DNA of 63,667 nucleotides, counting the filler, from Bonamia ostreae (taxonomy: Eukaryota), in the NCBI GenBank assembly GCA_040357525.1. It is 31 parts of 31 records of this genome, joined end to end, with 100 filler letters (N's around TTAATTAATTAA, not from the genome) between each part and the next. Parts side by side here need not be neighbours in the genome. Positions count along the whole stretch, not along the records: positions 20,661 to 22,623 come from JBDODL010001174.1; 30 more parts are not named here. One strand, 5' to 3'. Positions 22,310 through 22,623 of this stretch are shown here, piece after piece. The position numbers and the translations under genes are program-made. Each line of letters starts with the position of its first letter. Positions within the stretch are counted from its first letter, which is position 1. The notes under the pieces were generated by a model. It ran no database searches. It saw only the letters and a list, made by a program, of their open reading frames with translations, and was not told where the DNA came from.

Positions 22310-22623
22310 ATGCAAATGTTTTCATTTATTAATGTTGCAGTTTCGTAAAGACTCTCACGGGAAAGACGATCACGCTCGAAGCAGAGCCAAGTGACACGAT
22401 CGAAAACGTCAAAGCAAAGATTCAAGACAAAGAGGGAATTCCGCCTGATCAGCAACGACTTATCTTCGCTGGAAAACAGCTCGAAGATGGACGGACCCTC
22501 TCAGATTATAATATTCAAAAGGAGTCCACGCTCCATTTGGTCTTGAGATTAAGAGGAGGCTTTCAGATTTTCGTAAAGACTCTCACGGGAAAGACGATCA
22601 CGCTCGAAGCAGAGCCAAGTGAC
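22310..22623 (+). CDS. UBI4: Polyubiquitin (one full monomer plus start of second), 3' partial; not in ORF track
   Basis: ATG CAA AT|23-nt intron 22318-22340|T TTC GTA AAG... gives an exact 76-aa ubiquitin ending LRLRGG at 22560, followed in frame by [11 protein letters not shown]. Confidence 0.97.

Follow-up and report, generated by a model that had tools for sequence, protein, structure and literature searches.

The haplosporidian Bonamia ostreae (Rhizaria, Endomyxa, Ascetosporea, Haplosporida) appears to possess a functional polyubiquitin gene whose repeats, apart from the first, all start with Phe instead of Met, the change being probably near-neutral, a reading to which a probability of about 0.7 is given. 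The assignment to this species agrees with two proteins encoded elsewhere in the genome, which are exact matches of B. ostreae records. The gene is located on contig C1173, at positions 20661–22623 of the window (the whole analysed stretch of 63,667 nucleotides, consisting of ~2-kb contigs strung together with N-spacers), where the following features are found:

22310–22317, plus strand: exon 1 of the polyubiquitin gene, comprising the initiator Met1 (ATG at 22310), Gln2 and two bases of Ile3
22318–22340, plus strand: predicted 23-nt GT..AG intron in polyubiquitin codon 3, whose removal restores MQIFVK
22341–22560, plus strand: rest of ubiquitin monomer 1 (residues 3–76), with the seven Lys and LRLRGG intact and Ala17 at 22381–22383
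22561–22563, plus strand: Phe codon TTT replacing Met1 of monomer 2, without an inserted residue
22561–22623, plus strand: start of monomer 2 (residues 1–21), cut by the contig end, with Ala17 at 22609–22611
22248–22309, no strand assigned: 62-nt spacer, of putative function, separating the start codon of polyubiquitin (plus) from that of the E2 (minus)
21660–22247, minus strand: gene for a ubiquitin-conjugating enzyme (E2; PF00179, E 5e-19), arranged head to head with that of polyubiquitin

At the junction, residues Leu-73 to Gly-76 (LRGG, 22549–22560) are followed immediately by TTT (22561–22563) and then by CAG ATT TTC GTA AAG (QIFVK), which are the bases and the translation reported in the first-pass annotation of this DNA. 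Internal repeats of polyubiquitins usually, though not always, begin with Met; here Phe takes its place. Unit 2 begins 228 coding bases after unit 1, defining a head-to-tail 76-codon repeat in one frame, and the DNA of monomer 2 is the same as that of monomer 1 from codon 3 onward (19 further codons seen). The contig ends 63 nt into monomer 2 and only residues 1–21 of this monomer are present in the assembly. The unit matches PF00240 with 122.5 bits and, over residues 4–76, is identical to a PDB ubiquitin chain at 72 of 73 positions, the sole difference being Val17Ala; Ala17 occurs in both units, as had been noted at first pass. A second ubiquitin unit, and not a non-ubiquitin domain, follows Gly76, the eL40 and eS31 proteins being encoded on other contigs with leaders of their own.

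The earlier statement that the first monomer starts with Met holds provided that the predicted 23-nt intron is removed. The size of this intron matches that of the 22-nt introns of the eL40 fusion gene and of a 22-nt intron in the neighbouring E2 gene (21800–21821), which is left out in RNA run X5. Similarly, the length of exon 1, with the intron in codon 3 and in phase 2, is common to the polyubiquitin and eL40 fusion genes of this genome. The shared intron position thus supports both gene models as well as their native origin. The junction was also considered as a cryptic 3' splice site or the relic of an intron end and this was rejected, since use of such a site would shift the frame and the codon is retained in the RNA contig. 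As judged from the sequence, the 62-nt spacer is a probable shared promoter of the E2 and polyubiquitin genes. Elsewhere on the contig an RPEL-repeat gene (PF02755) occupies window positions 20780–21544 on the minus strand; there, run X4 displays a 127-nt intron for the minus strand together with a 33-nt skip (21260–21292) with GT..AG on the opposite strand.

Sequencing runs across the junction

Four of the 24 available sequencing runs, originating from four studies, were compared with the locus, all as contigs rather than raw reads; contigs drop rare variants, and DNA copies below 88% identity would escape the comparison. Among the 615 run pieces matched to the locus 28 were listed, and a piece was taken to bridge the junction when it held 31 letters on each side. 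The Phe codon is bridged by X2 record 16 (22405–22598, no other letters), with 156 and 35 letters on its two sides. X1 record 6 and record 27 of RNA run X5 agree with it at the junction but extend just 28 letters past the codon on their shorter side, below the 31-letter rule, and the latter record returns after 228 nt, closing the repeat through the TTT junction. This supports a genuine tandem ubiquitin repeat and not a fused ubiquitin-like domain. Other letters at 22561–22563 are absent from the difference table in all four runs (28 listed of 615 pieces), and a Met-type junction is absent among the pieces listed from all four, one of which covers the unit very deeply. X4 covers the junction region deeply, none of its 8 listed pieces (of 582) crossing the Phe codon. 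The earlier argument against a sequencing error is thus upheld, X2 carrying TTT unchanged and X1 and X5 agreeing, and a check for ATG at 22561, made on run contigs and not raw reads, returned TTT in these three records. The gene is covered in RNA run X5 and is therefore transcribed, although contigs give no expression level. X4 also covers the gene and is RNA by guess, but with spliced joints and no cover of 22047–22310.

Eight variants were found in the unit across the four runs. Seven are synonymous, including one that affects the codon of Ala17, and the sole replacement is Glu24Asp at window position 22404 (X2, X4 and X5), carried by some repeats or strains; the polyubiquitin unit is thus under purifying selection. 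In X1 record 7 the sequence departs from the repeat at 22562 and runs into a tail of six codons, the first encoding Phe and the last being followed by a stop (one contig of one run, read by eye). This tail, absent from the B. ostreae assembly when searched for, is probably the end of the polyubiquitin array. The number of repeats, n, is at least 2. Contig depths in X1 are 12.3 for the flank, 11–18 for the unit pieces, 4.5 for the junction and 6.4 for the tail, and those in X2 are 6.8–8.7 for the flank and 11.7 for the unit, values that hint at a short array, contig depth not being a copy number.

Ubiquitin sources and Phe junctions in metagenomes

Canonical ubiquitin was found at one locus of the assembly by protein search, by junction pattern (1 match) and by the PF00240 profile, for which one of ten matches is canonical (C1173 with 109.7 bits, the next with 64.7). 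The two ribosomal fusions, eL40 and eS31, occur once each and both display degenerate leaders. The ubiquitin-eL40 fusion (L020:1226–1674, C377) has a 76-residue leader in which 23 of 76 residues are identical to ubiquitin; LRLRGG is kept and Lys is present only at positions 22, 27 and 32, with Lys6, Lys11, Lys29, Lys33, Lys48 and Lys63 lost. The gene is modelled with two 22-nt GT..AG introns, the first of which coincides in position with that of polyubiquitin. Over the last 38 leader residues, 110 of 150 representative eL40 fusions match ubiquitin at 37–38 positions and the Bonamia fusion at 13. A search of representatives with the eL40 exon returned no recognisable close relative, and the low-identity leaders that it did return look like mis-called gene models. 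The eS31 (S27a) fusion (L021:76–534, minus strand, C406) has a 76-residue leader with 18 of 76 residues identical to ubiquitin, ending in LNGG, and a protein search with it returned only the Bonamia protein itself. Divergent S27a leaders are described in PMC10457151 as known in many protists.

Head to head with the S27a gene lies a 76-residue protein ending in LRGG and a stop (L022:723–950, plus strand, C406), which carries the NCBI label ubiquitin-L40. Its best single-domain PDB chain is NEDD8, with 54 bits against ~42 for ubiquitin, and this second-best PF00240 match is probably a mislabelled, divergent NEDD8. A search for SSU rRNA found only an AT-rich contig with rRNA-like sequence (L019, C7503), which is probably mitochondrial.

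Given the degenerate eL40 and eS31 leaders, no source of ubiquitin other than the polyubiquitin gene was found in the assembly, and with n repeats a sole source of this kind implies that (n−1)/n of newly made ubiquitin should be Phe1. Half or more of the B. ostreae ubiquitin pool is thus rather likely to be Phe1. In the transcriptome table of PMC9329632 two 'Ubiquitin' transcripts, given as labels and not as sequences, are among the most abundant of B. ostreae.

The assembly is fragmentary (7503 contigs), and one published B. ostreae assembly is reported to recover 65.9% of a conserved gene set (PMC11069148), such that a second, Met-type ubiquitin gene could be missing. The Phe-junction gene might then be a side paralogue, with the main ubiquitin produced from the missing gene. 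Arrays that fit such a role exist in metagenomes, where a pattern scan detected GG-FQIFVK at 13 loci on 8 contigs, with a TTT or TTC codon; viral contigs gave 0 matches to the pattern. Most of the metagenome Phe1 units belong to divergent paralogue clusters located beside near-canonical GG-Met arrays on the same contigs (L006, L010 and L011), and loci L006–L017 look like one or two low-GC eukaryotes that mix GG-Phe and GG-Met junctions in divergent polyubiquitin paralogue clusters. To judge by their sequences, these arrays are probably independent side paralogues. However, the 14 distinct metagenome Phe1 units have drifted 11–24 residues from the Bonamia unit, which itself differs from ubiquitin at only one of residues 4–76 and varies almost only at silent sites. 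Moreover, the three assembly searches located no second copy and the four runs listed no Met junction. A side-paralogue role for the Bonamia gene is therefore unlikely. The GG-Phe junctions in divergent side paralogues of other eukaryotes do limit the value of this junction as a lineage marker.

Phe at position 1 and its probable processing

The preferred reading, that of a conserved main gene with a near-neutral change, predicts the following course. General DUBs of the USP/UCH families would cleave the precursor behind every Gly76, each molecule yielding one Met1-ubiquitin and n−1 Phe1-ubiquitins. Phe would take the buried place of Met1 beside Val/Ala17, with E1/E2/E3 chemistry and Lys-linked chains proceeding as usual. 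The lack of a Met1-linkage system would allow Phe1 and concerted evolution would spread it, while the first repeat would be held at Met by the start codon. A junction change that spread to all but one repeat by concerted evolution is reported for Plasmodium ovale (PMC10457151).

Most DUBs cut linear Ub-X whatever X is, with the exception of Pro, according to PMC3692480, and the assembly holds 26 USP-domain matches and one UCH gene. Release of Phe1-ubiquitin, proposed at first pass, is thus the likely outcome; the same tolerance of DUBs for residue X leaves the altered DUB specificity that had been proposed with it unsupported. An effect on linear-chain chemistry, the other consequence suggested, fares no better, OTULIN having no match in the assembly in a search run without a positive control. 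Both zf-UBP matches of the assembly (L030 and L031, on C66 and C2713) look BRAP2-like, with a zinc finger followed by a coiled coil and, in L031, an upstream RING-like motif.

In folded ubiquitin Met1 is buried and makes a backbone hydrogen bond to Val17, as described in PMC8926867; Phe is a plausible hydrophobic substitute, with the free amine remaining. Since residues 1 and 17 pair, Ala17 was considered as a compensation for Phe1, a role that the comparison does not support. None of the 14 metagenome Phe1 units has Ala17 and 11 of 14 keep Val17, while Ala17 accompanies Met1 in 17 of 1360 database units among the best hits listed. Pro19 is lacking in all 14 metagenome Phe1 units, but also in all 5 Met1 units from the same loci. 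When one of the L017 Phe1 units was folded from its single sequence, with the start set one residue early, pLDDT was 56, too low to be informative.

Met1 is among the least varied positions of ubiquitin. The database background was drawn from the 120 best long and the 120 best short ubiquitin hits, with 8000 candidates scored in each search. Phe starts 0 of 1095 repeats at the junctions of the former and 0 of 153 at those of the latter (0 of 1248 in 240 polyubiquitins); direct replacements of Met1 among the junctions of these best hits are Val (9), Thr (4) and Ile (1). This near-invariance, together with the conservation of every other unit residue except 17, would suit a selected Phe1, which might form a second ubiquitin class read differently by binders or control ubiquitin turnover by serving as an N-degron or as a signal for trimming. 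Phe belongs to the type-2 N-degron class. PMC8926867 describes bulky hydrophobic N-termini as type-2 N-degrons and reports that ubiquitin N-termini can undergo trimming and arginylation in yeast. Nevertheless, the burial of residue 1 in folded ubiquitin, described in the same source, counts against such a role, and no ClpS-type domain was matched in the assembly (an incomplete genome, searched across split exons). In addition, the residue at position 1 is sporadically replaced by Val, Ile, Thr or Phe in other records, as expected of a tolerated site, which makes selection for Phe1 quite unlikely. A broader joint reading holds that the whole ubiquitin system of B. ostreae depends mainly on Phe1-ubiquitin from a single gene after both ribosomal fusions lost ubiquitin function, that the Met1/Phe1 difference is selected (as a two-class pool or a re-packed corner with Ala17) and that the junction marks loss of the insertion in Haplosporida; its selected-function half lowers its standing and, taken whole, it is improbable.

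It is also conceivable that the junction is never cut, unit 2 being a fused ubiquitin-like domain or the product remaining linear di-ubiquitin. USP5 and OTULIN are given as the main polyubiquitin-processing DUBs in mammals in PMC4522658, and, besides OTULIN, a USP5-like gene was not seen in the assembly. Against this stand the intact LRLRGG, the identity of unit 2 with unit 1 over 19 further codons, the closed 228-nt repeat of the RNA contig and the general cleavability of Ub-Phe fusions (PMC3692480). The last repeat, likewise followed by Phe in one contig, requires a GG-Phe cut as well before its Gly76 is exposed, and nothing else in the assembly was seen to supply ubiquitin, all of which renders an uncleaved junction very improbable. 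An assembly artefact, host contamination, editing of the RNA to AUG or a reading of TTT as Met has a negligible probability: the contig does end 60 nt beyond the Phe codon, within a repeat that has collapsed, and the protein is almost the animal sequence, but the same letters recur in DNA and RNA runs of different studies, the contig has tiny introns and shares its codon-3 intron with the parasite eL40 gene, a separate, loose-ended Val17-type ubiquitin piece in X1, at about three times the depth, is probably the host's, and in the adjacent E2 gene TTT occupies the position of the conserved Phe in PxIxF-TKIYHP.

Origin of the junction and comparison with known systems

One- or two-residue insertions at the junction are reported for Cercozoa, Foraminifera, Gromia (Ser), Phytomyxea and some Acantharea, and are regarded as ancestral for Rhizaria, with a few losses (PMC3014934, PMC12930898, PMC6133090, PMC13746701). 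The inserted residues named in the available text of these sources are T, A, S and NG, and the same text reports no ascetosporean junction. Insertion-type arrays in the database display S, G, T, A, D, SG, DG, AP, AN and VT, with no Phe. Ascetosporean polyubiquitins other than that of Bonamia are absent from the best 120 hits of either ubiquitin protein search (8000 candidates scored each). No Phe-junction ubiquitin of Bonamia or Ascetosporea was found in the literature, the primary papers on rhizarian junctions being known as cited elsewhere.

Three routes to the Bonamia junction are each tentative. The Phe-initiated codon of the tail may have recombined onto Gln2, removing insert and Met in one step, which is possible; the Phe at the start of the Bonamia tail is taken as a point for this route. 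Among the best hits listed, 8 of 88 database polyubiquitin tails start with Phe, and where an insertion-type array has a tail (five cases) this tail (Q, Q, Q, M and Y) is not the same as the insert. With equal likelihood the rhizarian insert may have been kept and Met deleted. A Ser insert codon, if TCY, is one base from Phe, and this is the shortest path by point changes. Hardly less likely is a loss of the insert followed by a change of ATG in two steps via Ile or Leu; other records, in which GG-Phe with TTT or TTC occurs next to GG-Met, indicate that such a substitution can happen.

A main ubiquitin that starts with Phe in a natural organism shows what position 1 really requires. It suggests that the conservation of Met1 reflects homogenisation of the gene and, in animals, Met1 linkage, and not core chemistry. 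In the yeast mutational scan of PMC4862753, Met1 is unscored (grey), being the start codon. It is the sole-source status of the gene that makes the Phe1 variant matter, its functional effect probably being small; a Phe1 N-terminus of newly made ubiquitin, of which no earlier description was found, most likely entails little loss of function. A haplosporidian that lacks the insertion also provides a missing data point for the textbook rhizarian signature.

Compared with the insertion-type arrays of other Rhizaria, the Bonamia gene is likewise rhizarian, has an altered junction and would release monomers that do not start with Met. In contrast, those arrays repeat every 77–78 codons, whereas the Bonamia repeat has exactly 76 codons (228 nt) and Met is gone, not displaced. 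The first-pass description of a distinct junction variant stands. The metagenome GG-Phe arrays (L006–L018) have the same GG-FQIFVK junction, carried there by side copies and in Bonamia by the conserved main gene. With yeast UBI4 and human UBB/UBC the gene has in common 228-nt head-to-tail repeats, LRLRGG, the seven Lys and a short C-terminal tail; in contrast to those genes, its internal repeats start with Phe and apparently no other gene supplies ubiquitin. A further parallel is provided by the divergent ubiquitin genes of Plasmodium and Giardia as described in PMC10457151 (with Catic and Ploegh 2005 as cited there), in which divergent eS31 and eL40 leaders, reliance on polyubiquitin and a junction change by concerted evolution are found as in Bonamia. 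In that source divergent eL40 leaders were known from Giardia and two Plasmodium lineages, polyubiquitin expression seeming to compensate, and the degenerate Bonamia leader adds a case to this short list. The Bonamia eL40 leader is, however, ~70% diverged with six Lys lost, far beyond Plasmodium, where leaders differ by 15% or more but retain most Lys, and the Bonamia junction change affects Met1, whereas that of Plasmodium is an extra Gly (PMC10457151).
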